NCBI RefSeq assembly: GCF_964213995.1 | Contig: NC_135816.1 | Location: forward strand, 19,654,001-19,718,000 | Reading direction: 5' to 3' | DNA: 64,000 nt | Origin: Mustelus asterias | Lineage: Eukaryota | Shown: positions 1,077 through 46,609 of the stretch, in pieces | How the letters are laid out: the number at the start of each line of letters is the position of its first letter | Position numbering within the stretch: the first letter of the stretch is position 1 | Notes under the pieces: generated by a model | Databases searched by the model: none | What the model saw: the letters and a program-made list of their open reading frames with translations, nothing else | Told to the model about the DNA's origin: nothing | Made by a program: the position numbers and the translations under genes

Positions 1077-1313
1077 GTGAGAAGTCTCACAACACCAGGT
1101 CAAAGTCCAACAGGTTTATTTGGTAGCAAAAGCCACACAAGCTTTCGGAGCGCTGCCCCTTCATCAGGTGAGTGGCAACTCACCTGACAAAGGAGCAGCG
1201 CTCCGAAAGCTAGCAGCTTTTGCTACCAAATAAACCTGTTGGACTTTAACCTGGTGTTGTGAGACTTCTTACTGTGCCCATCCCAGTCCAACGCCGGCAT
1301 CTCCACATCATGA
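1077..1313. mobile_element. Palindromic Penelope-like pseudo-LTR element (family A)
   Basis: Inverted arms of about 95 bp (1077-1172 and about 1178-1272) plus a one-sided extension. Same family as 4723-5146, 17449-18315 and 28763-28917. Confidence 0.75.
1136..1172 (-). ncRNA. Minimal type I hammerhead ribozyme motif, intact core
   Basis: The minus strand reads cucac-CUGAUGA-a-GGGGC-agc-GCUCC-GAAA-GCUU-gug. Confidence 0.65.
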
Positions 1314-1379
1314 CTCCTATTATTCACCCAATTTTATATCCACGTTGCTTTTAACCCTTTTGTCTCTTCATCCCACAAG

Positions 1380-1950
1380 CTGCTAACGGGGGGGTGTTGG
1401 AGAGGCCGCTGCGGCTGACACCGGGCTCCATGTGTACCCCCTCCCCCTCCCCTCCTACCCTCTAATCACAGGGAATGCTCCTCTTGTGTGACCTGGCGAC
1501 ATGTCAATGCAAACTCCCCCACCCACCCCAGCGGCCTGTCACTCAGAGTGAGGAGCGGGGATTCTCACTCACTCCTGGCACAAACCCCCTCATACACAGG
1601 CCTCTATATAACAATGGAGAAGGGCTGTCACAGCAGCCGAGACACAATGCTGGCTGCGGCTCCAGGCGGCCGGCACTCACCGACATGTCGAAGCGTGCGC
1701 CAGATGCCCGGCTCCTCTCTGTCCGCCCGGCGCTGCCGAAAGCGCCTGCGCGGCGGCGGCGGCGTCGCCGAGCGGCATGCCGGGAGGCGTAGTTTGCTCT
1801 CCAGGCTTTAACCCTTCATCAGGCGGCCCGGGTCAAAGGCCGCGCCTACAAATCCCAGAACACCCCGCGGTCCGTCCGTCCCCCTCAACCCTTCCCCCGG
1901 CCCCCCACCACCTTCTCTCCCTTTCCCCTCCCTCCGAGCTCACCGGTAAG
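1380..1950. promoter_or_regulatory. CpG island, probable bidirectional promoter (NUDCD2 and a minus-strand gene)
   Basis: High GC and CpG density against a CpG-poor background. A + strand donor CCG|GTAAG at 1945/1946 could end a non-coding NUDCD2 exon. Confidence 0.7.
1681..1790 (-). other. Putative first exon (3' part) of an unidentified minus-strand gene
   Basis: The minus strand reads ...gcttcgacATGTCG|GTGAGT, a consensus donor at 1680-1675 inside the CpG island. A second ATG lies near 1778. The 5' boundary is unknown. Confidence 0.45.
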
Positions 1951-3535
1951 AAGTCCTCATCTGGACAAAAACCATTTCAGTCAGTTCGAGTAGTTACTGT
2001 TTACTGGTTGACGATCACTCTCTTTATCACAGCTTTCTGTACGAGGGAGTGTTCTGAGAGGGAGGTTTTGTGACAGTGTCGTAAAGCCACTCACTCCTGG
2101 CCAGCCATCACAATGCCTGGATCCAAGTTGGGGAGAGAGAGTCTGACACTTGGACTGAGAGATTATTTCATGAGGAGAAGTTGTGAATTGATTTATTAAT
2201 CAGAGAAGAACTTGGAGATGGTACATGTGACAAGATTTTGAAGTCCACCAGATTAATATTGAATAATGCTAATTAATTAACATTACTACAGGTAAACACT
2301 GCTTGAATCCCACATCGTGAATTCAGGTCCAGCAGAATTGTCTCAGGGACTAATTTCAATTTTCTAGGTTGGCCAGAGAGGAATTTAACTGATTCTACCC
2401 TCCTTGCAGCCTCACTTTGGCCAGTGTTCTTAACTTTTTTTTTGCCTTCCATTTGTTTTTTGAGTGGGGTGGTGATATGATAAAGAAGGGGCAGGGATGT
2501 CAGCTGGAGACTTGTTGGGTGGAAAAATTAGCATCCGGAGTTAATGTGTTGGTTTCATGTCGCCATTCCTCCCACCAGCAATTTCCCTCTTGACAGGAGA
2601 AGGTGGGACTTGACAACCTACCAATTTTGGGAACGAGGCCAATTAATCTTGACAGCGAGCTCACTGTCCGTTCTTGAATTTGTTGAGGCTGCACAAATTG
2701 CCTGCCGGATCAAGGACTGATCAGGTGCCTGTAGGTGGCAACACAGTAGAGTGGCAGTCATGACTGTATCATCAACTTAGGTAGGCTTTGAATAGATAGC
2801 TGCTCGATGGCTGGTACAGACATGATGGGCCGAAGGGCCTCTTTCCATGCTGTAAATCTCTGATCTACAAAAGGGAGCACTGCTGAAAGGGCCACTCAGC
2901 CATTGGTACACAGGTGCCATCAGTTGTCTGGAGGTTGCAGGGAGAGTGGTTTGTATGCATTTGGTCAGTGACCCCTGTAGCATAATGGGGACAAAAGAGG
3001 AAGGATCTCAGACGTCATTAGGAGTGCTGCTGAGTGGAAGTAAGGCAATAGCTGGTAATGGGTGCACAATTCTCAGAATGATGGGTCCGGTGGTGATGAG
3101 CAGCAGCAGAGCTAAAGATCATAGGATCCTTACAGTATAGAAGGAGGCCAGTCAGCCTATCGAGTCTGCATGGACAACAATCCCACCTAGGCCCATCCCC
3201 GTAACCCCACTCACTCACCCCACTAATCCCCCTAACACCAAGGGGCAATTTTTGAAGCTAATAAATACTAACAGAATGATTGTACAGTATAACAAAATCA
3301 TGTTCGACATGATTTTAATCCCTAGCTAAAAATTGGTAAAGGAATGATCCAAATGTTATAAATGTGTTTAATGTTGAATATATCCAGACAGAGTTGTTCT
3401 AAAGTTTGACACATTTTGTTTTTAAAGTTATGTAACTGCTGTATGTAGTTTCTGTATAATTTTATATTGATATTACCAGATCTTTTAGCATTTGTCATAA
3501 TGCCACATTTTAAACCTGTTTTTACTTTTCAAGTC

Positions 3536-3724
3536 ATGTCAGTTCATTTTGATGAAAGAAGTGGTACCGTGCGCTGCAAGACCCCATGGGGAGAATGGTA
3601 TCAGACCATGGAAGAAGTTTTCATTGATGTCCAGGTTCCAGTTGGAACATCTGCAAAAGAAATCAAATGTAGTTTGGGGAGTAAAGATGTAGCGTTGTTC
3701 GTCAAGGGGAAAGAGATACTGAAG
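3536..3724 (+). CDS. NUDCD2: NudC domain-containing protein 2, coding exon 1
   Basis: Encodes MSVHFDERSGTVRCKTPWGEWYQTMEEVFIDVQVP...KEILK. AG acceptor at 3532-3533 and GT donor at 3725; 189 nt. Confidence 0.95.
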
Positions 3725-3755
3725 GTAAACAGATCCCTTATCTCTCCTTATACTT

Positions 3756-4055
3756 AAATTTTAATAATGTCACAAGTAGGCTTACATTAACACTGCAATG
3801 AAGTTGCTGTGAAAATCCTCTAGTCCCAACACTCCGGCACTTGCTCGGGTACACTGAGGGAGAATTTAGCATGACCAATGCACTTGACCAGTATGTATTT
3901 CGGACTGTGGGAGGAAACTGGAGTACCCGGAGGAAACCAACGGAGACAAGGGGAGAATGTGCAGACTGTGCACAGACAGTGAGCCAACCCGGGAATTGAA
4001 CCAAGAGCCCTGGCACTGTGAGGCAGCAGTGCTAACCACTGTGCCACCGTGTCGC
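3756..4055 (-). mobile_element. tRNA-derived V-SINE (HE1-like head, alternative tail)
   Basis: A and B box head and the conserved ggtttcctccgggt core on the minus strand. Confidence 0.85.
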
Positions 4056-4722
4056 TTTTTTTGGTTTGAAAATCTAACCTAGTTGATGCATTTCATTTTT
4101 AAATGAACACATTTGTGTCAGTTTAAATCGGTTTGTTACCTCACTTTTCGAATAATAGGTCTGACATAATTTCTCCCTACTCTTAATATGGAGATAAGAT
4201 GTATATGTGAGGTGATATGTAAGGCTTTAAATTGACGACCTGATATTTAAACAGGATAACAAAATCTAAATTCTAAAAAAATGAAACATTTTTCTCTGCA
4301 GATTCTGGCATGCATGCTTTGTATTTCCAAACATATGTTGTTACCTTAAAATACTAATTTTTTTCCCAACTCTCACCTCATTTTGGGAAGCATCAATTGT
4401 TCACAAAAATTTTCATTTTAACTCTAGCAATGATCCTGAGCTCTGTTCTGTTTTAGACTTGGTAAAAGATGGTAACCACACAGGCTAAATATTGAGTATG
4501 ATTCCTTATATGATTAGACTTTGGGCGGCATGGTGGCACGGTGGTTAGCATTGGTGCCTCACAGCACCAGGGACCAGAGTTCAATTCCAGCCTCGGGTGA
4601 CTGTCTGTACAGAGTTTGCACATTCTTCCCATGCCTGCGTTTCCTCCGGGTGCTCCGTTTTCCTCCCACAGTCCAAAGATGTGCAGGTGAGCTTGATTGG
4701 ACATTCTGAGTTGCCCCTTAGT

Positions 4723-5146
4723 AAGAAGTTTAACAACACCAGGTTAAAGTCCAACAGGTTTATTTGGTAGCAAAAGCCACACAAGCTTTCGAGGCTCTGA
4801 GCCCCTTCTTCAGGTGAGTGGGAATTCTGTTCACAAACAGAACTTAGAAGACACAGACTCAATTTACATGAATAATGGTTGGAATGCGAATAGTTACAAC
4901 TAATCCAGTCTTTAAGAAACAAAACAATGGGAGTGGAGAGAGCATCAAGACAGGCTAAAAAGATGTGTATTGTCTCCAGACAAGACAGCCAGTGAAACTC
5001 TGCAGGTCCACGCAACTGTGGGAGTTACAAATAGTGTGACATAAATTCTGATTCTAGGATCGCATGATAAAGACTCAGGAGGAAAAAAGCAGAAATATTT
5101 ATGTGAAATAGTGTGACATAAACCCAATATCCCGGTTGAGGCATCA
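4723..5146 (-). mobile_element. Penelope-like element 3' fragment (family A)
   Basis: 12-bp TSD ttgccccttagt (4711-4722 and 5147-5158). Homologous to the arm of the 17449-18315 element. Confidence 0.8.
4780..4818 (-). ncRNA. Minimal hammerhead ribozyme motif, intact core
   Basis: The minus strand reads cucac-CUGAAGA-a-GGGGC-ucaga-GCCUC-GAAA-GCUU-gug. Confidence 0.65.
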
Positions 5147-5683
5147 TTGCCCCTTAGTGTCAGGGGATTAGCAGGATAACTACATGGGGATACGGGGATA
5201 GGGCCTGTTTGGGATGGTTGTCAGTGCAGGCTCGATGGGCAGAATGGCCTCCTTCTGCACTGTAGGGATTCTACGATTCTTTGATGTATAGAAAAACCGA
5301 GTAATCCTTTAAAGTATATGTTGGAATAAGTACAGAATGTGGATTGTTATGGTGCTTGCATCTAAACTATAGAGTGCTATTCTATGTGCATATAAAGGAA
5401 AAAATGGCAATCACAAAGTGTTTCATGTTCTCCTGAACATCTCCAAATGTTTCATAACTGGTTGTAAAGTGTTACCACTGATAGCACCTCTGTCAATGCA
5501 ACAAATCTGAATACTGCATTGAAATGGTGGATTATGTGTTAAAGTCCCAGACTAGGACTTGAACTGCTGTCATCGAGTTAAAATTACACTAGATGTAAAA
5601 TTAAAAATAAAGAAATTCTAGTAAATTAAATAATTTTGTGCGGCACGCTGGATTGTCAGAGGTGAATCCCATTTGATTTTCAG

Positions 5684-5732
5684 GGCAAACTCTATGATTC
5701 TACCGTCTCTGATGAAGGAACCTGGACACTAG
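5684..5732 (+). CDS. NUDCD2: NUDCD2 coding exon 2
   Basis: tttcag|GKLYDSTVSDEGTWTL+g|gtaggg; 49 nt, phase consistent with its neighbours. Confidence 0.95.
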
Positions 5733-5948
5733 GTAGGGAACAATCTTAAGATGTTACCTTCACAAGTAGTGAGCTTTTCTTTATGCCTTTTTCTGTTTTT
5801 GGCGTTTCAGTATGAGAACTGGGGGTACCCCTCCAGTCTGTCTTTAGGCAAAATATTTTTTGAAGGACAAAAGAAATAAGGGAATTTTAAAAATATAATT
5901 TTCAACTATTATTTTCTTCCATCTCCAAAAAAATGTGTTTTCTGACAG

Positions 5949-6100
5949 AGGATAAGAAACAGGTGTGTATTATTCTGAGGAAAAGCAACCGAGAAGCTGG
6001 GAATTGCTGGCCTTCGTTGCTGGAAGGACAGTATAATGCTGATCCCTTGCTGAAAGATGAAATGCAGAAGAAACTTACACTAGAAAGATTCCAAAGGGAG
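5949..6100 (+). CDS. NUDCD2: NUDCD2 coding exon 3
   Basis: EDKKQVCIILRKSNREAGNCWPSLLEGQY...KKLTLERFQRE|gtaagt; 152 nt. Confidence 0.95.
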
Positions 6101-6435
6101 GTAAGTAGTGGTACATGTTGTATATTTGTATCTTGAATATATGCAAAGATGACTCTAGTTTCTATGATTGCAACATGCTATGTTCACAGTGCTTAGAAAT
6201 ATCTATCTCACACCTCTAGGTTTAGCTTCCAGCTATTTTACAGTTTTGCAGAGGTGGACTTAGACTTTTAGGGGCTTCGCACTCTGCCTCTGTGTTGGGC
6301 TTCCACATGTTGTCACTGCACCCCTTCCCGCTGGTGACATATCGCTCCAAACCCAATGGCATGAAACCCGCTCACCAGTGATGACAAGCCCTGCCTGAAA
6401 TGACATCAAGCTTTTTTCACTCCCTCTGCTTAAGT

Positions 6436-6778
6436 GCGGCACGGTAGCACAGTGGTTAGCGCTGCTGCTTCACAGCTCGAGGGACCTGGGTTCGATTCCC
6501 GGCTTGGGTCACTGTCTGTGTGGAGATTGCACATTCTCCTCGTGTCTGCGTGGGTTTCCTCCGGGTGCTCCGGTTTCTCCCACAGTCCAAAGATGTGCGG
6601 GTTAGGTTGATTGGCCATGCTAAAAATTGCCCTTAGTATTGTGAGATTCGTAGGTTAGAGGGATTTGTGGGTAAATATGTAGGGATATGGGGGTAGGGCC
6701 TGGGTGGGATTGTGGTCGGCACAGACTCAATGGGCCGAATGGCCTCTTTCTGTACAGTATGGTTTCTATGATTTCTAT
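6436..6778 (+). mobile_element. Full-length HE1-like SINE
   Basis: tRNA-like head, V-core, and a CR1-like tail ending tttctatgatttctat. Confidence 0.9.
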
Positions 6779-6967
6779 GAAGCCCCACCCCCAAATGACA
6801 TAATTGTCCTGACCACGCCTACTTTCAGCCCACACCATGTCAGCCAAAAAATACAGACAGGTACACGCATCGCTGCTTCAATGGTTTTTAACTTCTGAAA
6901 ACAAACCTGCAATTGATGAGTTCAAATCTATAATGCAAGCCACAGGAACCCAAAAAAGTACAAGTAT

Positions 6968-7258
6968 GGGCGGCACGGTGGCACAGAGGTTAGCACTGCT
7001 GCCTCACAGCACCAGGGACACGGGTTCAATTCCTGGCCTGAGTCACTGTCTGTGTGGAGTCTGCGCACTCTCCTCATGTTTGCATGGGTTTCCTCCGGGT
7101 GCTCCGGTTTCCTCCCACAGTCCGAAAGACGTGCTGGTTAGGTGCATTGGCCTTGCTAAATTCTCCCTCAGTGTACCCGAACAGGCGCCGGAGTGTGGTG
7201 ACCAGGGGATTTTCACAGTAACTTCATTGCAGTTAATGACTCGAATAAATAAACTTTA
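6968..7258 (+). mobile_element. V-SINE, alternative tail (ends aataaataaacttt)
   Basis: Same head and core as HE1 with a different 3' tail. Confidence 0.85.
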
Positions 7259-7997
7259 AACTTACAAAGCACTGGAGCAGTGAGCAGTGTAACTTATGAA
7301 AATAAGCCTGTAACTGATGAATTCAAATTCAAATCCACAATGCAAGCTGCAAAAATAATGCACAAATGACAAAGCGAGAGTAGCTCTTGGGCCCCGAGGC
7401 TCCACACATGCAGCAAAGCCTGGGCCCCGCAAAAGGCTCAGACTGGGCTCGGCTGGGTAGAAATCATTGATCTGCCCTAGTTGGCTCCGGAAAGCGGTGA
7501 ATTAGCAGCACGGACAGGCCAGGATCGCACAGCAGAAGCCCCACCCTAAGCGGTCTCCACCAGTCAGAACCCATTATTACACTGCACTGGTTGCTGCTGA
7601 GCCTATCAGCAAATTCAGAGCTCTCTGGCTCTAATTTGTGCCGCAAAGCCACCAGCCAGCATTCGCTCTCCACCACAGGAGCCCTGTGCCTGAGCAGGAT
7701 GTGTTTCATTGTAAGCCTGCCTCTGCTTCTTTGTTTACTCTGAGTCCACACCCAGGCTTAATCAATCAAGTACAGTGAAAGTCAATAGTAAACAGACTCA
7801 CATAATCAAACACAGAAGAATTGAATGCTTCAGTACCTTTTAAAATAAAGCTCTTTGGTTGGGTAATCATCACATTACAACTGCATCTGTTCCATTGTTT
7901 AGGATTTGAAGGCAATCTGATGAGAAGAAGATGTAAAGCAGTAAGTTAATAACAGAAGATACTAACTACAAAAGTTTCTGATGGCCAAAGAGTTAAA

Positions 7998-12306: not shown

Positions 12307-12331
12307 ATGTCGGATCTCTTCGTCAAACCAG
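12307..12331 (+). CDS. SRA1: Steroid receptor RNA activator 1 protein (SRAP), exon 1
   Basis: MSDLFVKP+g|gtgaag matches the recalled MAELYVKPG and joins exon 2 in frame. Confidence 0.9.
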
Positions 12332-13944
12332 GTGAAGTGAGAGGATGAGGGAGAAGCAGGTGGCTTCGAGTTGGGGGGGGAACTGATGGGCAAAGTTTAA
12401 AGAAGCCGAGGTGTATGAGGGGCGGGTGGATCTGCCCCGAGGTGCAGGCCACACGGTCTGTTACCCTGGTTACGTGGCACAGAGTTGGAGTCAGCTGTGA
12501 TGTAATGCTGCCCTGGAGCTGATCACTTTGATCATGTTTTGTAAATGAGAAGCTGCAGGGGGAATGGAAACACTGCATCCAGGACACATGAGTGTATATG
12601 TAGGTTACATATAACAACATATATATATGGGTTAAATGTGACAACATGTATCGAGGGTACATATGGATGTTTATGCACACCTAAACTGGGCATATTTTAA
12701 GAAAGTATATGTATATATTGTGGGCAACAAAGGAAGGAGAGGGACAGAGGAAGGGTAGCTGGAGCTGTAGCTCTGAAAGGGATGAAAAAGGATGAAAAGG
12801 AAACATGCCGCCAGCCATTGAAGAAAATCTCAGCTTCCTGCATCAAATCATTCATTTGAAGGGCCTGAAGATACAGCCATCAATCATGGAGTGATTAAAA
12901 TGAAGTATAATCAAAAGACCGAAATTAGAGGAGTGTAGATATAATATGCTACTGACAGGATCGATCAATCAGACAGCTGAATTAGAAATCAACACCAGGC
13001 TGGGAGTGACAACAACACAATGGCAGACCAGCAAAAAGTACTGAACAGCCCACCTTGCCAGCATGACACACTAAAACATCTTCGGCACATTGTGTTGCAA
13101 CTGCCATTTTGTACACAAGATCTATGTTTATGCTACTTGTTTGTGCATTTATATATTTGATTTACTTACACCTGTTCCAGTTATTTTCCTTTTATGGATA
13201 TAGGACTATGTCTCTGATTTTGATATATGAATCCTTTTGTTTTGGCCAAGTTGATGTTCATTCCAAAGTTCACATCTGCTGTTAACAGTCATATCTACTA
13301 GTTCTTTAATCACTATTCTCTGCTTACTGTGAGTGCTGTGTTATCTGCAAATCTAACATATTATCATTCATGCTCTTGCCCCTCCCCCAAATAATAACAC
13401 CCAATTCTGTGTCCACAAATGCTCCTTTGATCATTGCCCCTGCCATAGGCAAAAATGAGGCCTGGTGATAAACCACACCCTTGTTGAACTCCTGTAACAA
13501 TTACAATCTTCTGACTTACTTACTGACTGACTTACAATGTACAGATTTCTTATGAGTCGTCTTCTGAGTCTATTCAACCCAAACAAATTCTTTTTCAAAA
13601 TCTACAAAACAAATTTATATTTTCTGCCTAAACTCTAAACTACATTCTGAAGAAGTTTTGTATTCAACTAGTGACATTAACTCTTGTTTTTTTCTCCCCA
13701 GATGCTGCCAGACCCACTGATATTTCCAGCACTTTCTGATTTCATCTCTTAAAGTGCATTCACTCCATAATCTTCTAATGTCAATTGCTTTTTGTCCCTC
13801 TTCCCCTCTGGATCCAAACTGGTCATATCTAATGTGGCTCTGTGCCTTTGCACCCACTTCTTTTGTTACAATTCTCAACACAACTTTCAATGCATGGACA
13901 TTCACATAATTTGTACAGAAGTCAGAACATCAATATGCAGGGTC

Positions 13945-16835
13945 AAGGGTGGGTACCGGTAGACAGGAAGGTGGGTTGAAGTGTGTCTACTTCAATGCAA
14001 GGAGCATCCGGAACAAGGTAGATGAACTTGGGGCATGGATTGGTACTTGGGACTACGATGTTGTGGCCATTACGGAGACGTGGGTAGAACAAGGACAGGA
14101 ATGGTTGTTGGACGTTCCGGGGTATAGATGTTTCACTAAGTGTAGGGAAGCTGGTAAAAGAGGTGGAGGAGTGGCATTGTTAATCAAAGATAGTTTAACG
14201 GCTGTGGAAAGGCACTTCGAGGGGGATCTGCACACTGAGGTAATATGGGCTGAGGTTAGAAATAGGAAAGGAGCGGTCACGTTGTTAGGAGTTTACTATA
14301 GGCCCCCAAATAGTAATAGAGATGTGGAGGAAGAAATTGCTAAGCAGATTATGGATATGTGTGGGGGTCACAGGGTAGTTGTCATGGGGGACTTTAACTT
14401 TCCAAATATTGATTGGAACCTTTGTAGGTCAAATAGTTCGGATGGGGAAGTTTTTGTGCAGTGTGTGCAGGAGGGTTTCCTGACACAATATGTGGATAGG
14501 CCGACAAGAGGTGAGGCCACATTGGATTTGGTACTGGGAAATGAACCGGGCCAAGTGTTAGATTTGGTTGTGGGAGAGCACTTTGGAGATAGTGACCACA
14601 ATTCGGTGTCTTTTGTTATTGCAATGGAGAGGGATAGGGCCATATGGCAGGGCAAGGTTTACAATTGGGGGAGAGGTAATTATGATGCGATTAGGCAAGA
14701 ATTAGGGGGCATAAGTTGGGAACAGAAACTGTCAGAGAAAGGAACTAATGAAAAGTGGAACTTTTTCAAGGAACAAATACTGGATGTCCTTGATAGGTAT
14801 GTCCCTGTCAGGCAGGGAGGAAATGGCTGAGTGAGGGAACCATGGTTCACGAAAGAGGTGGAATGTCTTGTGAAAAGGAAGAGGGAAGCTTATGTAGGGA
14901 TGAGGAAACAAGGTTCAGATGGCTCGATTGAGGGTTACAAGTTAGCAAGGAATGAGCTGAAAAAGGGGCTTAGGAGAGCTAGGAGGGGACACGAGAAGTC
15001 CTTGGCGGGTCGGATCAAGGAAAACCCCAAGGCTTTTTACTCTTATGTGAGGAATAAAAGAATGACCAGGGTGAGGTTAGGGCCGGTCAAGGACAGTAGT
15101 GGGAACTTGTGTATGGAGTCAGTAAAGATAGGCGAGGTGATGAATGAATACTTTTCTTCAGTGTTCACCAAGGAGAGGGGCCATGTTTTTGAGGAAGAGA
15201 AGGTGTTACAGGCTAATAGGCTGGAGGAAATAGATGTTTGGAGGGAGGATGTCCTGGCAGTTTTGAATAAACTGAAGGTCGATAAGTCCCCTGGGCCTGA
15301 TGAAATGTATCCTAGGATTCTTTGGGAGGCAAGGGATGAGATTGCAGAGCCTTTGGCTTTGATCTTTGGGTCCTCGCTGTCCACGGGGATAGTGCCAGAG
15401 GACTGGAGAATGGCGAATGTTGTTCCTCTGTTTAAGAAAGGGAATAGAAATGACCCTGGTAATTATAGAGTGGTTAGTCTTACTTCGGTGGTTGGTAAAT
15501 TGATGGAAAAGGTCCTTAGAGATGGGATTTACGACCATTTAGAAAGATGCGGATTAATCCGGGATAGTCAGCAGGGATTCGTGAAGGGCAAGTCGTGCCT
15601 CACAAATTTGATAGAATTTTTTGAGGAGGTAACTAAGTGTGTTGATGAAGGTAGGGCAGTTGATGTCATATACATGGATTTTAGTAAGGTGTTTGATCAG
15701 GTCCCCCATGGTCGGCTTATGATGAAAGTAAGGAGGTGTGGGATAGAGGGAAAGTTGGCCGATTGGATAGGTAACTGGCTGTCTGATCGAAGACAGAGGG
15801 TGGTGGTGGATGGAAAATTTTCGGATTGGAGGCAGGTTGCTAGCGGAGTGCCACAGGGATCAGTGCTTGGTCCTCTGCTCTTTGTGATTTTTATTAATGA
15901 CTTAGAGGAGGGGGCTGAAGGGTCGATCAGTAAATTTGCTGATGACACCAAGATTGGTGGAGTAGTGGATGAGGTGGAGGGCTGTTGTAGGCTGCAAAGA
16001 GACATAGATAGGATGCAAAGCTGGGCTGAAAAATGGCAGATGGAGTTTAACCCTGATAAATGTGAGGTGATTCATTTTGGTAGGACTAATTTAAATGTGG
16101 ATTACAGGGTCAAAGGTAGGGTTCTGAAGACTGTGGAGGAACAGAGAGATCTTGGGGTCCATATCCACAGATCTCTAAAGGTCGCCACTCAAGTGGATAG
16201 AGCTGTGAAGAAGGCCTATAGTGTGTTAGCTTTTATTAACAGGGGGTTGGAGTTTAAGAGCCGTGGGGTTATGCTGCAACTGTACAGGACCTTGGTGAGA
16301 CCACATTTGGAATATTGTGTGCAGTTCTGGTCACCTCACTATAAGAAGGATGTGGAAGCGCTGGAAAGAGTGCAGAGGAGATTTACCAGGATGCTGCCTG
16401 GTTTGGAGGGTAGGTCTTGTGAGGAAAGGTTGAGGGAGCTAGGGCTGTTCTCTCTGAAGCGGAGGAGGCTGAGGGGAGACTTAATAGAGGTTTATAAAAT
16501 GATGAAGGGGATAGATAGAGTGAACGTTCAAAGACTATTTCCTCGGTTGGATGGAGCTATTACCAGGGGGCATAACTATAGGGTTCGTGGTGGGAGATAT
16601 AGGAAGGATATCAGAGGTAGGTTCTTTACGCAGAGAGTGGTTGGGGAATGGACTGCCTGCAGTGATAGTGGAGTCAGACACTTTAGGAACATTTAAGCGG
16701 TTATTGGATAGGCACATGGAGCGCACCAGGATGATAGGGAGTGGGATACCTTGATCTTGGTTTCAGATAAAGCTCGGCACAACATCGTGGGCCGAAGGGC
16801 CTGTTCTGTGCTGTACTGTTCTATACTGTTCTATG
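13945..16835 (+). mobile_element. Young CR1 LINE with nearly complete ORF2 (APE endonuclease + RT)
   Basis: ORFs 13949-14830 and 14831-16696 are in the same frame, separated by one TGA. Motifs YFNARS, ITETW, GDFN, SDH, GVPQGSVLGP and FADD are present, with a (ctgtt/ctat) tail. Confidence 0.95.
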
Positions 16836-16979: not shown

Positions 16980-17448
16980 AAAGATTGGAGGTGCAAAAAG
17001 AAATGCAAACAAAGGTGGCAATGGGAAAGATTGTATTGAATGAGAAGAGACAGTTGCTAACCGGAAAGCGAAATTAACATTTCAAGAAGGGACTTGCAAG
17101 GAGTATTGTTTTGTGTTGATGAGTCTAGGACCTTATGGAAAGAGGAGACCAACTTGCTAAGTAGGTTAGAAACGTGGATTCGGAGGAGAGTGGAAAAGAT
17201 CGGGTGGACAGAAAAAGTAACAAATGATGCAGTGCAGAGGAGAGTGAACGAACAAAGACATTTGTTGAAAGTAATTAGGAACTGATGGAAACTGGGCAGG
17301 ACACATCTTCAGGGGAAATGGGCTAGTAAGGGAAATTACAGAGGGAAGATTTCAATGAGTAAGAGGGAGGAAAAGAATATTGATGCTGGATGGCTTGAAA
17401 ATCATTGGAAATTATTAAAAAGTGAAAAGACTGGCACAGGAAAGAGAG
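16980..17448 (+). mobile_element. Degraded RTE-clade LINE 3' fragment (continues at about 18329-18390)
   Basis: LETWIRRRVEKIGWTEKVTNDAVQRRVNEQRHLLKVIRN and a WAGHI motif, typical of the RTE C-terminus. Confidence 0.65.
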
Positions 17449-18315
17449 TCATGATGTGGAGATGCCGGCGTTGGACTGGGGTGAACACAGTAAGTTTTAA
17501 CAACACCAGGTTAAAGTCCAACAGGTTTATTTGGTAGCAAATACCATTAGCTTTCGGAGCGCTGCTCCTTTGTCAGATGGAGTGGAAATCTGCTCTCAAA
17601 CAGGGCACAGAGACACAAAATCAAGTTACAGAATACTGATTAGAATGCGAATCCCTACAGCCAACCAGGTCTTAAAGACACAGACAATGTGAGTGGAGGG
17701 AGCATTAAGCACAGGTTAAAGAGATGTGTACTGTCTCCAGACAGGACAGCCAGTGAGATTCTGCAAGTCCAGGAGGCAAGCTGTGGGGGTTACTGATAGT
17801 GTGACATAAATCCAACATCCCGGTTTAGGCCGTCCTCGTGTGTGTGGAACTTGGCTATCAGTTACTGCTCAGCGACTCTGCGCTGTCGTGTGTCGTGAAG
17901 CGGCCTTCACGACACACGACAGCGCAGAGTCGCTGAGCAGAAACTGATAGCCAAGTTCCGCACACACGAGGACGGCCTAAACCGGGATGTTGGATTTATG
18001 TCACACTATCAGTAACCCCCACAGCTTGCCTCCTGGACTTGCAGAATCTCACTGGCTGTCCTGTCTGGAGACAGTACACATCTCTTTAACCTGTGCTTAA
18101 TGCTCCCTCCACTCACATTGTCTGTGTCTTTAAGACCTGGTTGGCTGTAGGGATTCGCATTCTAATCAGTATTCTGTAACTTGATTTTGTGTCTCTGTGC
18201 CCTGTTTGAGAGCAGATTTCCACTCCATCTGACAAAGGAGCAGCGCTCCGAAAGCTAATGGTATTTGCTACCAAATAAACCTGTTGGACTTTAACCTGGT
18301 GTTGTTAAAACTCTT
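17449..18315. mobile_element. Penelope-like element forming a near-perfect 408-bp inverted repeat
   Basis: Arms 17493-17900 and 17905-18312 with loop cggc. 13-bp TSD acaggaaagagag (17436-17448 and 18316-18328). The arm encodes LHDTRQRRVAEQKLIAKFRTHEDGLNRDVGFMSHYQ*, a GIY-YIG-like C-terminus. Confidence 0.85.
18225..18261 (+). ncRNA. Hammerhead motif with a core mutation (CUGACAA); mirror copy on the minus strand at about 17544-17580
   Basis: ccau-CUGACAA-a-GGAGC-agc-GCUCC-GAAA-GCUA-augg. Confidence 0.55.
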
Positions 18316-20063
18316 ACAGGAAAGAGAGACCAGGCGAAGACTTATAAGCTGAGGACCTGCCTGGAGGCAGAGCACATAATGGTGATAATTATCTGGTGTG
18401 ATCTAGTCTGAGTATTGTATTTAATATTTGCAATCACATTTAAGTGCTGCATTATTGAAACCAGGGAACTGACATGATGCATGACACCAAAGTCATTAAG
18501 CAAACTGAGGATAACGCTCCATTGATTATTTTAATGACCGTTAAGAAATACGGTTCAACTCTGTTCACTGTATTAGAGCTGAGAGAATGAAGATTACTGT
18601 CCACTGAACACCAACAACACACTCATAAGCAGTTTATATTTTAACAAAATTTTGAGTTCCTAAAATTTGTGTTTTCTCCCTGTTCACAGCGTGAAAGCAT
18701 TTGAAAGGAGAATGATTAACAGAAGAGAAAGTGCATTTACTGGAATTTATAATGTTGAATCCTGGAGAGGAAATAGTCTTGGTTTGCTGTGAGAAAGCTT
18801 ACCACATTGCATGTCCTGTCCAGGAAGCAATTTACTGATTGACTTTTGCAGCAAGCTCATTTCACCTGGTTGTCAGTCACTGTCAGACAAGATCAATATT
18901 TATTCACAGCACAGAATTGCCATTTGTCTGATACATGTCCACACAACAGTTGGGAACCTCTTTCAGAAAGATACATTCAAGGGAAAGGTAGATAAGCAAA
19001 AGAAAAAGGAATAGAAAGGTATGCTGATGGTGTTAGATAAGGAGGGCTGGGATGAGGCTGGTATGGAACACTGACATAGACCAGTTGGGCTGAATGACCT
19101 GTTTCTGTTTTGAAGTTCTCTGATTCAAAGTTTTGAATGGAAAGGTTTACACTAATACATTACTAAATTCTCTTGTGACTTTTGGGCAGAGTAAGAGGAA
19201 CTTTACTTGATACTGACATATTGACCAATGGAAAAATATACTTCACTGTTGATCGCTAATATTCATTCTTTGATGCATCCAAACTAACTGCGGCAGAGTT
19301 TATTTTTATACTACTTAACACCATTTGCTGCTTTCAAAAGAAATATACCACTATATATCAGAGGTTGTCTGTTCCTTCAGGTGAGTCTATCTTATTTTAG
19401 GACCTGACAGTCAGATCTTTGTAACAAGATGAAAAATGTGTTTTCAGTGAACTAATTTCACATCTTGACATCACACCAGAGAACTTCAGTGTTGCTATAA
19501 TAGTGGAGTTCTTTATCCTAGAAGCAGTAGAGTAAATGCAAGTTGTCCAGTTATTCTGTTGCTCATTAGTAAGCGCTCTTGATATCTGCTTGTGTGTATT
19601 CGCTCATCCATCCATGGTTGATTTATTTGTTTAGGGAGGCGTACATTTTTGGTTTCACCAAAAAACAGGAAGATGCTTGTTTTCCTCTATAGTTAATGAA
19701 CTGTTAATAAAATCAGGTGAACAGGTAGCTTGGACAAATGTGGACTCTCTGAGAATAATTTCCTTTAATGGTTACTTCCGGTGAAAAATACGTTCCTGTG
19801 GAAAAAGAATTTCATGTTTCAAGGAAATTGGAGAGAAAAGATTTGATGTTACCACACAATGGTCTGTTAATTTAGGAAAATATTGAAAATACAAAAAATA
19901 TACTGTACATTGCAATTTTTATGTGCCTTGAAATGTTTTACTTGTGAATATAAATATAAGTTGTAGTTGTTTTGAATGGTTTATTGTAATTAATTTATAT
20001 TTTTTATGCCATCATTTTATACTGTTTTGCTTAATTGTAAACCTTTTTTTAAAACAAATTCAG

Positions 20064-20919: not shown

Positions 20920-21140
20920 TTTGTGGACCAGCTGGAATTCCTCCTGCAGTTATACCATCAGGTTCTTCAGTAGCCTCTGAGAAGATGCCACCACCACCAC
21001 CACCTCCAAAGCAATCTGGCCTGTCCAGCAGTTGTAAACCAGTGCAAAGTGCAGCAGTTACACCTGATTGTGAAGTAAATGTGGAAGATGTTTTAGCTCC
21101 ATTGAATAAGACACTGGAGGTTTGTAGGAAAACTGTTAAG
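20920..21140 (+). CDS. SRA1: SRA1 exon 3 (proline-rich)
   Basis: ctgtag|...MPPPPPPPK...VEDVLAPLNKTLEVCRKTVK|gtaagc; 221 nt, phase consistent. Confidence 0.92.
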
Positions 21141-22996
21141 GTAAGCAGACAGTCAATGATATTCCTACAGCAGGGCTTTAAAAATCTCATCCCAGTAAGT
21201 TCTAAGAACAATGGTAGTGCTGCAGATTCCTGATGAGGAATTGGTCAACAAAGACTGTATTGATATTCTCTTGTTCAACTCAATTACTGTGTGTCATCTT
21301 AAACTCTTTGTATGATTAACAACATTGCACTGTAAGAGGTAAAATCTGATTAATTACACACTGAAATTTTTGCCTCAGAAGTACTGAACACAGCCAGTTG
21401 TTGTTCCACAAAATAGAAGGTAGAGAAGATCGCTCCAGTATTCCCACATGCTTCAAAGCACCTGACTGTAGAGTTAGCTTAGCAGATGTGCAGTAGCTAG
21501 TTGGTTGGAAATGGTGAATGATGGAAGGCTAAAAGGAGCGAAGGAATGATGCTACATACCTATTCTTAAAATATCATGTAATCAGCCTTGATACTTGCAT
21601 ATCAGAAATGTTGATGTAAGAGGGGACAAATTATGTTGAAAATGTATATAGTAGGTAGCGGAATAAACTGTGTGGAACAGAATAAGCAAGATTTTCTATT
21701 GTTGTAGAAAAGGCTTGCATTTTACAAGAACATTCCAAAATTCTACCAGACAGCAAATGATTTAAAACTACCATTGCCTTATTTGCAAATATGGCAACCC
21801 TTGTTAGCACAGCAAGCTCCTGCAATTAGCAATGACAATAAATGACAATTTCCTTTTATTTTTTTCAATCATATTGGCTGAGGGAAGAATATTGACCAAA
21901 ACACTCCAGAAAACATGCTGCCCATTGAAGAATGATGTAGACTTTCTAATTTAACTGAACCATTGGAACAGGAAAGTGGGAGGTTAGTTTAACACCAGAC
22001 CTGAAGGAAGGCCCTTCTCGCACTAAAGTATATCCTCTGCACAAATATCAGCTTTGATTGTGTGCTCAAGTTCTGGTTTGAAGTTAGAATCAACAACTTT
22101 ATAACAGGAGGAGAACATTCAGCCCTTTGAGCCTGCTCTGTCATTCACTTTGATCATGGCTGATCATCAAATTCAATATCCCGATCCCCCTTCCTCCCAT
22201 ATCCTTTGATCCCTTTAGCACCAAGAGTTGTATCTAATATCTTTTTGAAATCGGACAACGTTTTGGCCTCAACTACATTCTGTGGTGGTGAATTCCACAC
22301 ATTCACTACCTTCTGGGTGAAGAAATTTCTCCTCTCTTCTTATCCTCAAATTATGACCCCTAGTTCTAGACTCCAGAACTCGAGCTGTTACTTGGATAAC
22401 AAAACTGATATGCAGAGAAGCAGCAACATACACGTAGTAGTTCTGTTTCCATTGAAAGGTGTGTCAGTTATTTAGTGCAGATAAAACAACCTGATAAAAA
22501 GTTGATTGTACCAGTATGATGTTATGTAATAGTAGGAAATTGGATAACAGCCATAATTGCCCTTATTCCCAGTTCCCAAATTCAGGCTATAAATTGAGCT
22601 ATAAATATCAGCTTTGATTGTGTGCTCAAGTTCTGGTTTGAAGTTGGAATCAACAACTTTCTAACATAGAAACTAGAAGCAGGAGCAGGACATTCAGCCC
22701 TGGAAAATTCATGTCACTGAATCAATAATCACCCCTCGTCATTTCTTCTGTAGCAAAAGCCACTGTCAGTTTGATTGCCCACATATAGGAATTGTGGATA
22801 ATACAGATGGATTTTAACCAATAAATTGATGATATAGCAGTGGAAATAACAGTATAATAATGACATTTTAAAGTGATATTTTGATGGCAGCTGTTAGGGG
22901 TCATGAAGGGTATTGTGTTATTTTGAATACTTGCAAAAGTTTTAATGTTCAACATTTAATAATTGAAGGCATGTTGTTTCCAAACTTTTTGTCTAG

Positions 22997-23105
22997 AAAC
23001 AAGTTTGTGATGATATGGGCAGAAGGCTGATAATGCTCCAGGAGATGTGGCAATCAGGAAAACTATCCATATCAGTGCAAAAAAGGATGCACCTCCTCAC
23101 ACTAG
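22997..23105 (+). CDS. SRA1: SRA1 exon 4
   Basis: [36 protein letters not shown]+g|gtaatg; 109 nt. Confidence 0.95.
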
Positions 23106-23518
23106 GTAATGAATTTGTTATGTCTTGCATCTTGTCCAAATTCTTGTATATGAGGCTCGAGGGGCCCGAATGACCAACTATCTTTCCTGTACTGCTGAGT
23201 GAAATAGAGGAGGTGAAACAAGATTTGTTTATTTAGATAGAAACCTTTTTGTCATTGTAACTGAGAACTCTTTGTAAAATGACAGCTCTTTATAAAATTC
23301 TAATGATTGAAATTTTAATGTAATACAGAAGTGCCTAACCTGCAGCCCTTAGGAGATTTATGGCCCTTGAACCTGTACAGTTTGGACCATGGAATACAAG
23401 CAACTCCGTGTCTATTTTATGTATTTTTTTTTATCGGTGGCTTGTCCTGTAATGGCTTGTTCTTCTCACTCTTTCCTAATTGACGGCTATGTCCTAAATC
23501 AGAACAGAATCATAGAAG

Positions 23519-24697
23519 CGGTTGATGTGGTGTATATGGATTTCAGCAAAGCGTTTGATAAGGTTCCCCATGGTAAGCTTTTGCAGAAAATACGGACACA
23601 TGGGATTGAGGGTGATTTAGTGGTTTGGATCCAAAATTGGCTAGCTGTAAGAAAACAAAGGGTGGTGGTTGATGGGAAATATTCATCCTGGAGTTCAGTT
23701 ACTAGTGGTGTACCGCAAGGATCTGTTTTGAGGCCACTGTTGTTTGTCATTTTTATTAATGACCTGGATGAGGGCGTGGAAGGATGGATTAGTAAATTTG
23801 CGGATGACACTAAAGTCGGTGGAGTTGTAGACAGTGCGGAGGGAAGTGGCAGGTTACAGAGGGACATAGATAAGCTGCAGAGCTGGGCTGAGAGGTGGCA
23901 AATGGAGTTTAATGCGGTAAAGTGTGAGGTGATTCACTTTGGAAGGAGTAACAGGAATACAGAGTACTGGGCTAATGGTAAGATACTTGGTAGTATGGAT
24001 GAACAGAGGGATCTGGGTGTCCATGTGCATAGATCCCTGAAAGTTGGCACCCAGGTTGATAGGGTTGTTAAGAAGGCGTACGGTGTGTTAGCGTTTATTG
24101 GTAGAGGGATTGAGTTTCGGAGCCAGGAGGTCATGCTGCAACTGTACAAAACTCTGGTGTGGCCGCATTTGGAGTATTGCGTACAGTTCTGGTCGCCGTA
24201 TTATAGGAAAGATGTGGAAGTGTTGGAAAGGGTGCAGAGGAGATTTACCAGGATGTTGCCTGGTATGGTGGGAAAATCGTATGAGGAAAGGCTGAGGGGC
24301 TTGAGGTTGTCTTCGTTAGAGAGAAGAAGGTTAAGAGGTGACTTAATAGAGGCATACAAGATGATCAGAGTATTAGATAGGATGGATAGTGAGAGCCTTT
24401 TTCCTCGGATGGTGTTGGCTAGCACGAGGGGACATAGCTTTAAATTGAGGGGTGAGAGATATAGGACAGATGTTAGAGGTAGGTTCTTTACTCAGAGTAG
24501 TAAGGGCGTGGAATGCCCTGCCTGCAGCAGTAGTGGACTTGTCAACATTAAGAGCATTCAAATGGTTATTGGATAAACATATGGATGATATTGGAATAGT
24601 GTAGATTAGAGGGGCTTTAGATTGGTTCCACTGGTCGGCACAACATCGAGGGCCGAAGGGCCTGTACTGCGCTGTAATCTTCTATGTTCTATGTTCT
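23519..24697 (+). mobile_element. 5'-truncated CR1 LINE (RT C-terminal half) inserted into a SINE tail
   Basis: Motifs YMDFSKAFDKVPH, GVPQGSVL, FADDTK and LEYCVQFWSP. Tail tctatgttctatgttct, with minus-strand SINE pieces on both sides. Confidence 0.92.
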
Positions 24698-25179
24698 AAT
24701 CCCTACAGTGCAGGAGGAGGCCATTCGGCCCATTGAGCCTGCAACGACAACAATCCTACCCAGGACCCATCTCTGTAACTCCAAGTATTTACCCTGCTAA
24801 TCCCCCTGATACTAAATGGCAATTTACCATGGCCAATCCACCTAACCCGCACATCTTCGGATATACCGCTTGGAATACCAAGATCTGTTAGCACCAATAG
24901 ATAGCGAAATGCGTTACAAAGACAAAAGGCTTCCTGATGTATGGGATCTAATTCAGAATTATTTCCTCAGAACAGTGTTTTATCCATGTTTACGAGATTG
25001 CATGAGCAGGTTGTCTGATGAGGTTGGACAGGTAGGGCTTGTTTCCACTGGAGTTTATGAGAATGGGAAGTAACTTGATTGAAGTATATAAGATCCTGAA
25101 TGGACTTGACAAGGTGGACGTGGAAAGGATGTTTCTTCTTGTGGGTGAGCCCAGAGTTAGGGGTCACGTTTTAAAGTTA

Positions 25180-25725
25180 AGAAAGCCCACCAACGTCTCT
25201 ACTTTCTCAGAAGAGTAAGGAAATTTGGCATGTTAGCTACGACTCTCACCAACTTTTACAGATGCACCATAGAAAGCATTCTTTCTGGTTGTATCACAGC
25301 TTGGTATGGCTCCTACTCTGCCCAAGACCGCAAGGAACAACAAAAGTCGTGAATGTAGCCCAATCCATCACACAAACCAGCCTCCCATCCATTGACTCTG
25401 TATACACTTCCCACTGTCTCGAAAAAGCAGCCAGCATAATTAAGGACCCCACATACCCTGGACCTTCTCTCTTCCACCTTCTTCATATAATTCAAAAGTC
25501 TGAGGTCACGTACCAACTGACTCAAGAACAGCTTCTTCCCTGTTGCCGTCAGACTTTTGAATGGACCTACCTTGCATTAAGTAGATTTTTCTCTACACCC
25601 TAGCTATGACTGTAACACTACATTCTGCACTCTCTCGTTTCCTTCTCTATGAACGGTATGCTTTGTCTCTATAGCACGCAAGAAACAATACTTTTCACTT
25701 TGTTAATAATAATAACAATAAATCA
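25180..25725 (+). mobile_element. Rex1/Babar-type LINE 3' fragment nested in an older CR1 end (about 24950-25990)
   Basis: NFYRCTIESILS / ITQTSLPSIDSVYTSHC / KNSFFP-type sequence plus the tail. Confidence 0.8.
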
Positions 25726-26103
25726 AAAAATTAGGGTTAGCCTTTATAGGACAGCGATGGGCAGAAATTCTTTCTCTCAGGGTTGAGCGACTTTGGAACA
25801 CTCTCAGAAAGTGGTGGATCATTGAAAATTTTTAAGGCAGAGGTGGGTAGATTCTTGCTACGCAAGGGAATCAAAGGTTATCGGGGGGAGATGGGAATGT
25901 GGCACTCAACACAAACAGATCAACCAGGATCCTACTGAATGGCAGAGCAGGCTCAAGGGGCTGAATGGCCCACTTCTGCTCATATTTGGTATAATTGTAC
26001 CTCTTTCCCTGCCTTTTAGCAGCACATCTTTGTATTGTTTTAAGTGTTTAGCTACAATGACATTTTAAGTCCTAAGAATATGTTGTATATGTTTGTCTGA
26101 CAG

Positions 26104-26273
26104 AAATGGAGCACTGCAACTGGGATTCTGCTGATGAAATCCACAGATCTTTGATGGTGGACCATGTGAATGAAGTGGGACAGTGGATGGTCGGAGTGAA
26201 ACGCCTCATTGCTGAATCCAAAAATCTACCATCTGACCTTACTGCAAACAGAGATTGTGAATCAGAAAACTGA
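26104..26273 (+). CDS. SRA1: SRA1 exon 5 (last)
   Basis: [38 protein letters not shown]...SEN*. Total CDS 654 nt = 217 aa. Confidence 0.95.
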
Positions 26274-28762
26274 GGGGCTAGGTCTAAACCGTTCATGATG
26301 ATCCAACTGACAACTCTGCTCTTCTGTGAGAATGCAGTCAAGGACCAAAATTATAAAACATCAACAACAGGAATGAGGAGAAGGCAATACTTGTCAATGA
26401 TTCCTGCATTAAGCAGGAAGAAAGCATGTATTTGGGCTGTATTCTTATCTCGAGACTGTTCAAGAGTTTACAAAAGCACTTTAGTCTTAAAGAAATGGAC
26501 TGAGCTTTTCGGTGACTTGGCCACTGCTGCAATTATCAAATCCTTGTATTCTGTTTGGAAGGCAAATGTCAGATGTTGACTATTATCAGTTTCCTCTGCC
26601 ACAGAGAATACAGCCAAGTCTTATTGCTTCAAGCACTTAGGCCTCTTCCAGGGCGGACTTTTATTTTTTTACATGTATTGTCTTCCTGACGTCTGTAGAA
26701 ATTAGCTTTCCATTTAACTCTACCGCAAGTAATTCAGAAACTGTGGCCTTCCTGCTGCAATTTTATATTTTTAAAACTATTAAAGATTCAAAGTGAAGAG
26801 TTATCTTGGAATAACTTTGGAATATCATGTGCGTGTAATTTTTTTTCATTTTATCAAAAAACATACTTCTTTCATTCATACACACCTATGTATACGATGT
26901 TCTTATTTGAAATGTGCTGGATGATTGGATGTGATGCGGATAGCTGAATGTTTGGTCTGCGCAGAGCTGCACTAATATGAAGGTTGTTTCACTCCCTCAT
27001 CCTGACAAAACTGAGACTGGGAAATGCTCTCTGGAAAAATAAAAACTTTTGATAGGTGCAAATATTGCCTTTTTTTAAGTTCTTTTTCTAACTTGCAGAA
27101 GGTTTGCCCGGCAACTTAGCCCCTTAATTGTAAAATTGCACTTTTGTCTGTACTTTTTTTCCCTCAAGTTTTCCAAGTTATTCAATTTGGAACATATATT
27201 TTGGGCGGCATGGGGCATCGTGCTGAGCACTGCAGCCTCACAGTGCCGGGGACCCGAGTTCAATTCCAACCTTGGGTTATTATATGCAATTTGCACGTTC
27301 TTCCCGTGTCGATCGGAACCCTCATCACAAATGAAGGGCTTTTACAATTATAGGTTATATCGTTATTATTATGTTTCCACTTTTGTCAAACAACAAAATG
27401 GGGATGGGGTGAAAGCATTAGTGAAATGTGCTACACCTTGGTGTACTGGGCACCTTGGAATTACAAAGAGGGGCGAAAAGTAAGTATATTTAATTCTTAT
27501 ACTAATATTGTGGATGTAATCTTTTTTTTAACCAGTCTTGTCTCACTCCTTGTTTGCATCAAGTTGAGGAAGGTGCAGATAGATGCCCGCTAATATTTAT
27601 GGTGCACGTTTGGCCTGCAATTTCACCAGGAGTGAAATTATTATTTTGAAAAGAAGGTGGCGTCACAGTTGAACCCGATCTTGTCACAGCGATTACCACA
27701 TATACGTGATTAGCTGGGATTACTGAGCAGATTCCAGTATCGGCAGCAATTTGCTTTTATTACTGAACAGTGATTCGTTCTTTTCAAAAAAAAATGAGAT
27801 GGATGCTATCTTTGTGTTTATCTAAAGTGTTTTTTTAAACAATGACAAATCAGAATAAATGCTGTACTTGGGTATCTCAGTAATTGAGACACAGCCCCTT
27901 GAGCTCAAGTGAGCAATGAAATTAGCTAAAGCTGATCTAATTCAGGGCTGATTAAATAACCCTGTTAATCATAAAATTTTACATTTGCAGTTTTTTTTCG
28001 ACTATTAGCTTTAAATTTACACAGAAGGTTTCTTGTTTCAAACCTTGCAAACTTTGATTTAACTTAGCACATACCTTTGAGGGATCAAATGTCAGATAAT
28101 GTTTAGATTCATGAATTCTGTTTGTTGTACAACTTGGAACATTTTGAAATCTTGGGATTTGTAGTTAGAATGTATCTCAGTTACTGAACTGAGTGCTTTG
28201 CTGCATAGATTGTTACACTGCAGTGATAATATTGTGACCCTGATCTGCCAAGCCTCCTCACTCACGTCTAGTCTCATTCATTTTCACCTATACTTTTAAA
28301 TCAGTGTATTGTGCTTATGGTAAAAGCAAATGACTGCAGATGCTGGAATCTGAAACAAAAACCGAAAAATGCTGGAAAATCTCAGCAGGTCTGACAGCAT
28401 CCGTGAAACGAGAATAGAGCCAACGTTTCAAGTCTGGATGACTTCATCAAAGGGTCATCCAGACCTGAGATTTTACAAAATTTTTTGGTACTGTGCTCAT
28501 GTTGGTTGGCTGGATGGGGGAACAACAGCTACAGGTATGCCAGTGATTTTGTAGATTGTCACATTTGCCAATCACACATTTCACTTTGCTGGATGTTGAC
28601 AATTGGACTTTCCAGAATACACTCCCATCAGGAATGAATGACATTGATTTGATTTATTATTGTTACAGTGAAAAATATTGTTTCTTGTGCACTGTACAGA
28701 CAAAGCATACTGTACAGCTGGATTGGTAGTAGGTTAGTAGGGATGAGCCTTTCATTATAACG

Positions 28763-28917
28763 AGAAGTCTCACAATACCAGGTTGAAGTCCAACAGGTTT
28801 ATTTGGAATCATGAGCTTTCAGAGCGCTGTTCCTTCATCAGGTGAGTCACACTGCGTTGTGTCGTGAGACTTCTTACCGTGCCCACCCCAGTCCAACTCT
28901 GGCATCTCCAGACCATT
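28763..28917. mobile_element. Short Penelope family A element with a hammerhead motif, just upstream of the SPCS3-like gene
   Basis: 9-bp TSD attataacg (28754-28762 and 28918-28926). The minus strand reads ucac-CUGAUGA-aggaacagcgcucu-GAAA-GCUC-auga. Confidence 0.7.
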
Positions 28918-46608: not shown

Positions 46609-46609
46609 T

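Follow-up and report, generated by a model that had tools for sequence, protein, structure and literature searches.

Hammerhead-bearing ends of a Penelope-like element in the Mustelus asterias genome, with a possible trace of cleavage at the hammerhead cut site

Minimal hammerhead ribozymes, inverted arms, one-sided tails and short target-site duplications (TSDs) are already known in Penelope-like elements (PLEs). In fishes, minimal hammerheads have been recorded from elements of the Xena, Poseidon and Neptune types (Cervera and De la Pena 2014, PMC4209133), and TSDs of 8–10 bp, inverted arms and a one-sided tail are described for the endonuclease-bearing (EN+) PLEs (PMC8557442, PMC3846280). 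The role of the hammerhead in EN+ PLEs has been called unclear (PMC8557442), and one in vitro study found it to be dispensable (PMC11167929). The window analysed here, 64,000 nt of the shark Mustelus asterias (NC_135816.1), holds four insertions with hammerhead-like motifs, numbered 1 to 4 from the left (Table 1). These are very probably 5’-truncated, mostly head-to-head 3’ ends of a PLE that encodes a reverse transcriptase (RT) and a GIY-YIG endonuclease and carries a minimal hammerhead motif.

The four insertions lie where an earlier note on this DNA had placed them and are related, with pairwise identities of 80–92%; the note’s description of them as one family was too simple, as at least two subfamilies are present and copies 2 and 3 are 80% identical. 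Short TSDs (12, 13 and 9 bp) flank three of the four. Insertion 3 is an inverted repeat whose arms are separated by 4 nt and differ by 2 mismatches, with the tail on the left arm. The arms of insertion 1 are 89% identical, a tail of ~40 nt is found on the right arm only, and the predicted fold is a long hairpin (z −23.8). The 11% divergence between these arms (1077–1272) is accompanied by features of different subfamilies (GCUU gugug vs. GCUA, 2 nt shorter), and insertion 1 is either an old copy or the product of two templates. Insertion 2 sits inside one copy of an abundant tRNA-like short interspersed element (SINE), presumably HE1-like, found at 4523–4700 and in many other places.

The parent element is represented elsewhere in the genome by a complete copy (L091, 4560–7965) in which two pseudo-long terminal repeats (pLTRs) surround an open reading frame (ORF) of 892 aa; the hammerheads are 3,018 nt apart, and the upstream one carries G12A. 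Insertion 3 runs into this RT and GIY-YIG ORF, its coding remnant matching the C terminus of the 892-aa product at 36 of 37 residues, and the link to Penelope RT/GIY-YIG sequences drawn in the earlier note is thereby borne out. Pfam searches identified RVT_1 (E 4e-9; E 9e-9 with the whole ORF), many relatives of the ORF carry PF01541, and a C-x4-C-x2-C linker is located between RT and endonuclease. The closest named relatives are shark proteins (80–92% identity), followed by those of sea turtles (42–43%). The features expected of an EN+ PLE are all found: an ORF, pLTR direct repeats from a partial tandem, an inverted 5’-truncated copy, a one-sided tail and a short TSD. The tail terminates at the ORF start codon, and longer copies continue into GIY-YIG and RT coding sequence.

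The same anatomy was observed in a sample of 214 unique copies from 144 loci. With a distance limit of 3 kb, 82 pairings of head-to-head arms were obtained; after removal of 16 rows whose subfamily was mixed or unassigned, 66 were kept, a few loci appearing twice. The tail is found on one arm in 61 of the 66 rows, on neither in five and on both in none. Rare variants common to both partner arms occur at 3.1 per kb (50 in 16,161 bp, 57 rows), compared with 0.17–0.25 per kb in random pairs, and show no rise at short loops, so the partner arms likely derive from one template. Gene conversion between arms, considered as a source of the near-identity in copy 3, is not supported by these data, although it may have acted in copy 3 itself: pairs with short loops share 2.6 rare variants per kb (23 rows) versus 3.4 per kb (34 rows), nine rows picked for their shared variants having been left out.

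A loose core descriptor (YUGANRA-stem II-GAAA-GC-UH) detected six hammerhead-like cores, distributed over all four insertions and each with an AGCU palindrome that replaces stem III, as the earlier note wrote; its three stem II variants (GGGGC/GCUCC, GGGGC/GCCUC and GGAGC/GCUCC) are also present. Stem I of at least 3 bp together with stem II of at least 4 bp is found in four of the six cores and in none of 100 dinucleotide shuffles, and the CUGANGA box is found in three of the six. Both reported forms of stem I, cac/gug and ccau/augg, exist, with the qualification that in the window ccau/augg accompanies only the CUGACAA core. In copy 4, stem I is lost (cac/aug) and stem II breaks after 3 bp, so that its core is not intact as a fold. 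An Rfam scan of the window returned four matches at E ≤ 1, none of them a hammerhead; as the Rfam hammerhead models expect a helix III, this is not taken as evidence against the motif.

A second, older repeat family with a hammerhead motif, absent from the earlier note, is also present. Its copies (CUGAYGA ... GAAACGUU, with an ACGU palindrome) measure ~130 nt and are often arranged as mirror pairs; 2,186 first-look candidates were counted in the genome. Those of the window are located at ~950–1057 (+), 28326–28475 (−), 52345–52453 (−) and 13688–13742 (+), two of them at most a few hundred bases away from insertions 1 and 4.

Across the genome, cores could be parsed in 204 of 216 anchored copies by a parser that permits one mismatch per box and thus partly fixes the boxes. 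By position counts, the 204 cores have the CUGANGA and GAAA boxes, the UH cut site, a bulged base before stem II and the G10.1-C11.1 pair, and nearly all have the AGCU palindrome; C, A and U occur at N7, and A, U and C but never G at H17, and changes within the boxes fall mostly at two CpG sites. Covariation was assessed in 88 distinct rows, consisting of three window rows and the 85 locus rows left when two of 87 had been removed for their indels; in these, 92.2% of cells are paired. At the pair beside the cut site (2.1-1.1), C-G occurs in 42 rows, U-A in 39 and U-G in two, with five unpaired, and one stem II pair is A-U in 58 rows, G-U in 27 and G-C in three. Cells altered on both sides number 47 versus 15.1 in shuffles, a value above all 500 shuffles. 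The compensatory stem changes claimed previously are thus upheld, and the covariation is between a few subfamilies. For this motif, cleavage is predicted in the dimer only, a mode of cutting credited to Luense et al. in a review (PMC6765202).

The CUGACAA cores are best read as CpG decay of CUGACGA, TG and CA being the two deamination outcomes at a single CpG. In subfamily A, exact core counts are 14,077 for CUGACGA, 1,687 for CUGAUGA and 911 for CUGACAA. Two other readings of CUGACAA, a functional variant of the core and a subfamily in its own right, were set aside as principal explanations: it accounts for 5.5% of these 16,675 exact cores, it arises from a CpG by a G-to-A change, and it was not accompanied by a matching C3U change. 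The excess of TG over CA (1,687 vs. 911) could reflect selection on G8; at non-hammerhead CpGs of the same subfamily, a noisy control in a sample biased by its queries, the figures are 115 TG and 126 CA, with single sites ranging from 16:3 to 1:15. Among the first 100 matches listed, counted by eye, CUGACAA occupies both arms in five pairs compared with 0.8 expected from the CG pairing rate (P ~0.001), and TG occupies both arms in four compared with 1.4 expected. Because the both-arm CUGACAA pairs exceed expectation, dead-core templates may still be copied, as would fit a hammerhead that is dispensable or one that a partner cuts in trans.

The 5’ ends offer a further view of the hammerhead. 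In an unbiased sample of 136 arms, drawn from the initial 2.9 Mb of a single contig, 110 arms run through the whole core, 92 of these with the core intact, suggesting that templates are mostly uncut at the hammerhead; by eye, ~5–6 arms start within 2 nt of the cut site. Genome-wide start patterns, each requiring two non-element bases ahead of the start and applied to subfamily A only with two control positions, gave 356 matches for the cut site, compared with 194 for the control 3 nt upstream and 349 for the control 3 nt downstream. Among those checked, true truncations were 26 of 28, 18 of 20 and 14 of 20, respectively, one internal deletion per control set having been reclassified by eye. 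Scaling for flank bases brings the estimates to ~1,075 arms at the cut site (917 with CC-prefixed palindromes unscaled), 311 upstream and 435 downstream, which is a 2- to 3.5-fold excess over the two neighbouring positions and amounts to ~900–1,100 arms. Many of the arms at the cut site belong to tiny mirror pairs joined at that base. Such fold-back arms make up 21 of 26 true truncations there, compared with 2 of 18 at the upstream control and 8 of 14 at the downstream control; the difference between cut site and downstream is not significant (P 0.15). By eye, the start CCATGG, the fold-back pattern, was present in 35 of the 100 cut-site matches listed. In a separate tiny mirror insertion (L236), the arms are joined at the AGCU palindrome itself and not at the cut site.

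The excess may be a trace of cleavage in vivo. We would give slightly less than an even chance to the broader proposal that the genome preserves a fossil record of occasional hammerhead cutting in cells, performed in trans by a partner whose stem I matches; dead-core copies and mostly uncut templates are as expected if cutting is occasional and in trans. A literature search covering mostly open papers found no report of 5’ ends enriched at the cut site. The strongest rival retains the same PLE but makes its hammerhead a passenger in transposition, with the cut-site 5’ ends produced by RT stalling or by fold-back at the 2-nt palindrome. This we consider unlikely. In its favour, hammerhead mutants of the anole Poseidon element were unchanged in their in vitro insertion (PMC11167929), and the 110 arms that span the cut site, the both-arm CUGACAA pairs and the frequent CCATGG starts all speak for it. 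It is opposed by the catalytic boxes, which are kept across subfamilies while N7, H17, loop II and stem pairs vary, and by the cut-site excess, which is still ~2-fold or more when CC-prefixed matches are left unscaled.

Under the model of truncated ends of an RT and GIY-YIG PLE, the PLE protein would nick the DNA and start reverse transcription just upstream of the start codon, proceeding back through the hammerhead. Both nicked strands would often be primed off one template, giving mirror pairs; most templates would be uncut at the hammerhead, with a small minority likely cut beforehand. After insertion, methyl-CpG deamination would convert CUGACGA to CUGAUGA (intact) or to CUGACAA (predicted dead), and paired arms in host transcripts would fold into long hairpins that hide the ribozyme.

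The earlier note had pictured a mostly non-autonomous ribozyme family spreading near housekeeping genes. Counted as exact-pattern matches in the 3.68-Gb genome, and in every case equal on both strands, there are 156,977 occurrences of a 28-nt pLTR motif, 93,375 of two anchors around the hammerhead and 41,944 of one core pattern. The pLTR motif alone recurs about once per 23 kb, so four insertions in 29 kb need no gene targeting. A separate retrozyme- or SINE-like family without autonomy, spreading by its own RNA, is very improbable. The copies are indeed mostly short and lack an ORF (median aligned lengths of 398 nt for subfamily A and 362 nt for subfamily B), the rare variants shared by arms mean that many different templates were in use, and vertebrates are reported to have PLE derivatives that are not autonomous (bioRxiv 10.64898/2026.07.22.740005). 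However, the 5’ ends are spread continuously over a range that starts at a few bases and exceeds 650 nt, the longer copies enter the coding region, and none of the four insertions contains a tandem array or two cores on the same strand. The copies are thus variably truncated ends of an ORF-bearing element, dispersed genome-wide.

It had further been claimed that intact cores are antisense to the genes and that sense copies carry CUGACAA. Exon joins were taken from spliced contigs in 1–6400 only, while SRA1 and SPC22-family exons were placed by sequence. Insertion 2 is intronic in a + strand CS-domain gene, which we take to be NUDCD2-like (spliced contigs join 1950–2289, 3532–3722 and 5947–6100), and its intact core is antisense to that gene. 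Insertion 3 is located in intron 1 of + strand SRA1 (inferred exon 1 at 12307–12331, exon 2 from 20064); as its arms form a 408-bp inverted repeat with two mismatches, one CUGACAA core appears on both strands. Insertion 4 lies ~230 nt upstream of the start codon of an SPC22-family gene. A cytoplasmic leucyl-tRNA synthetase gene on the minus strand, here called LARS1-like and missed in the earlier note, has its exons 2 and 3 beyond the left edge of the window (L094:7059–7175 and L094:3131–3223), with PDB matches of E 6e-7 for exon 2 and E 4e-15 for exon 3; the match of exon 2 to the human protein begins within the first few residues, and this exon has no start codon. If exon 1 has its coding part in the 6 nt at 1681–1686, insertion 1 falls within intron 1 and carries its intact core in sense orientation to the pre-mRNA, which we consider likely. 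The same intron holds a second mirror insertion (L094:8090–8400, subfamily A) with intact cores on both arms, which like insertion 1 is predicted to fold into a long hairpin. The LARS1-like gene has two intact sense cores, one intact antisense core and one broken sense core. The LARS1-like and CS-domain genes are arranged head-to-head across a CpG-rich stretch.

The orientation rule is contradicted both in the window and by the presence of both orientations in the LARS1-like gene, and there is no sign of a strand rule, although the numbers are small. Orientation would matter little, since hairpin formation is predicted to sequester the ribozymes of paired arms. That host selection purges intact sense hammerheads from introns, so that intact cores are left antisense and broken ones sense, is likewise very improbable. 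In its favour is insertion 2, the only intronic copy with a single arm, whose core is intact and antisense. Against it, copy 3 has a CUGACAA core on each strand, one LARS1-like intron holds two intact cores that are probably sense, an intact antisense core and a broken sense core are also found in that gene, and paired arms would be hidden in hairpins.

Several results weigh against the reading of the four insertions as ends of a hammerhead-bearing RT and GIY-YIG PLE, or against its details. A search for a TSD around insertion 1 found none. GIY-YIG reached E 0.002 on the C-terminal 536 aa, short of the Pfam cut-off, and was not reported in the Pfam search of the whole 892-aa ORF. The element is likely of the Neptune type, an assignment made by a single linker motif that is common to Nematis, as a CX2-5CxxC linker between RT and endonuclease marks both groups (PMC8557442). 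The sampling of arms from one contig also has to be borne in mind. Only four pairs are altered on both sides, a number equalled in 105 of 500 shuffles and one that reflects few independent events. In the nearest-neighbour model, the active dimer fold lies ~10 kcal/mol above the best two-strand fold, which agrees with the low activity reported for minimal hammerheads by Cervera and De la Pena (PMC4209133). The placement of LARS1-like exon 1 at 1681–1686 likewise comes from the genomic sequence.

Table 1. Coordinates of the insertions, hammerheads and other features in the window.
Feature	Position	Strand	Description	Parts	TSD
Insertion 1	1077..1313	no single strand	head-to-head pair of short pLTR 3’ ends	arms ~1075–1175 (−), ~1178–1272 (+)	
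Insertion 2	4723..5146	−	single 5’-truncated 3’ end, subfamily B		12 bp: 4711–4722 / 5147–5158
Insertion 3	17449..18315	no single strand	subfamily A, 408-bp inverted repeat	arms 17493–17900 / 17905–18312; tail 17449–17492	13 bp: 17436–17448 / 18316–18328
Insertion 4	28763..28917	no single strand	short − strand pLTR end joined to very short + strand end	pLTR end 28763–28847 (−); very short end plus tail ~28859–28917 (+)	9 bp: 28754–28762 / 28918–28926
PLE ORF end	17902..18015	+	last 37 codons and stop, end of GIY-YIG domain, in insertion 3		
Hammerhead	1136..1170	−	intact: cac CUGAUGA A GGGGC-agc-GCUCC GAAAGCU U gug	core 1139–1167	
Hammerhead core	1184..1212	+	G8A (CUGACAA), stem I broken	core 1184–1212	
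Hammerhead	4780..4816	−	intact: cac CUGAAGA A GGGGC-ucaga-GCCUC GAAAGCU U gug	core 4783–4813	
Hammerhead	17544..17580	−	stem I ccau/augg, G8A core CUGACAA	core 17548–17576	
Hammerhead	18225..18261	+	stem I ccau/augg, G8A core CUGACAA	core 18229–18257	
Decayed hammerhead	28813..28841	−	CUGAUGA core; stem I unpaired beside cut site; stem II mismatch	core 28813–28841	
LARS1-like exon 1, coding part (inferred)	1681..1686	−	ATG TCG then GT donor; joins exon 2 in frame		
Long interspersed element (LINE)	13910..16693	+	in SRA1 intron 1	endonuclease frame 306 aa, RT frame 621 aa	
Further RT frame	23371..24573				
Inverted repeat	42897..43850		168 nt, 98% identity		
Minisatellite	45333..46610		units of 35–39 nt		
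Hairpin	54071..54165		95 nt; weak microRNA-model scores, far under gathering thresholds		

The class to which these insertions belong is a known one, and the orientation rule that made the family seem special was wrong; what remains is statistical value. All structural marks of the minimal hammerheads in metazoan PLE pLTRs (PMC4209133) are present in the shark cores: both lack helix III and have a palindromic 15.2-16.2, a short helix I, an unpaired base between A9 and 10.1 and a G10.1-C11.1 pair, and both share the pLTR location, many solo copies and families with compensatory changes. The shark stems (3–4 bp and 5–6 bp) are shorter than those of the Schistosoma examples in that paper, and the at least 93,375 two-anchor matches compare with ~4,000 copies in coelacanth and ~9,000 in Xenopus, the search methods being different. 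Sharks are unmentioned in the available part of that work, and a literature search covering mostly open papers, without their supplements (which may list shark motifs), found no report of shark Penelope hammerheads. With the EN+ PLEs (PMC8557442, PMC3846280), the shark element has in common the head-to-head arms, a one-sided tail of 30–40 nt, TSDs of 8–13 bp, a C-terminal GIY-YIG and the C-x4-C-x2-C linker; there is no difference in kind, and to this pattern can be added that the shark tail ends at the ORF start codon.

Animal non-LTR retrozymes (bioRxiv 10.64898/2026.07.22.740005), present in the only chondrichthyan sampled, are also hammerhead-bearing and PLE-related. They are tandem, unit-length, non-coding repeats, whereas the shark copies have ends of variable length that continue into the ORF; with their continuous spread of 5’ ends, their coding remnants and, in the four insertions, the absence of tandem units, the latter do not conform to that class. 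The Poseidon element PAc of Anolis carolinensis (Frangieh 2024, PMC11167929) shares the pLTR hammerhead and the cleavage of both target strands, and the tail, a trait of both elements, has been attributed in PAc to RT starting at two internal sites. The PAc hammerhead overlaps the start codon and RT begins 111–118 nt into the ORF, whereas the shark hammerhead is located ~100 nt upstream of the ATG. For PAc, that study found no reads that end at the cut site, whereas shark 5’ ends show a modest enrichment there. The shark element has more than 150,000 copies and several subfamilies, in which 5’ ends, dead-core templates and stem I matching can be counted base by base, so that the role of the hammerhead would become testable from sequence.

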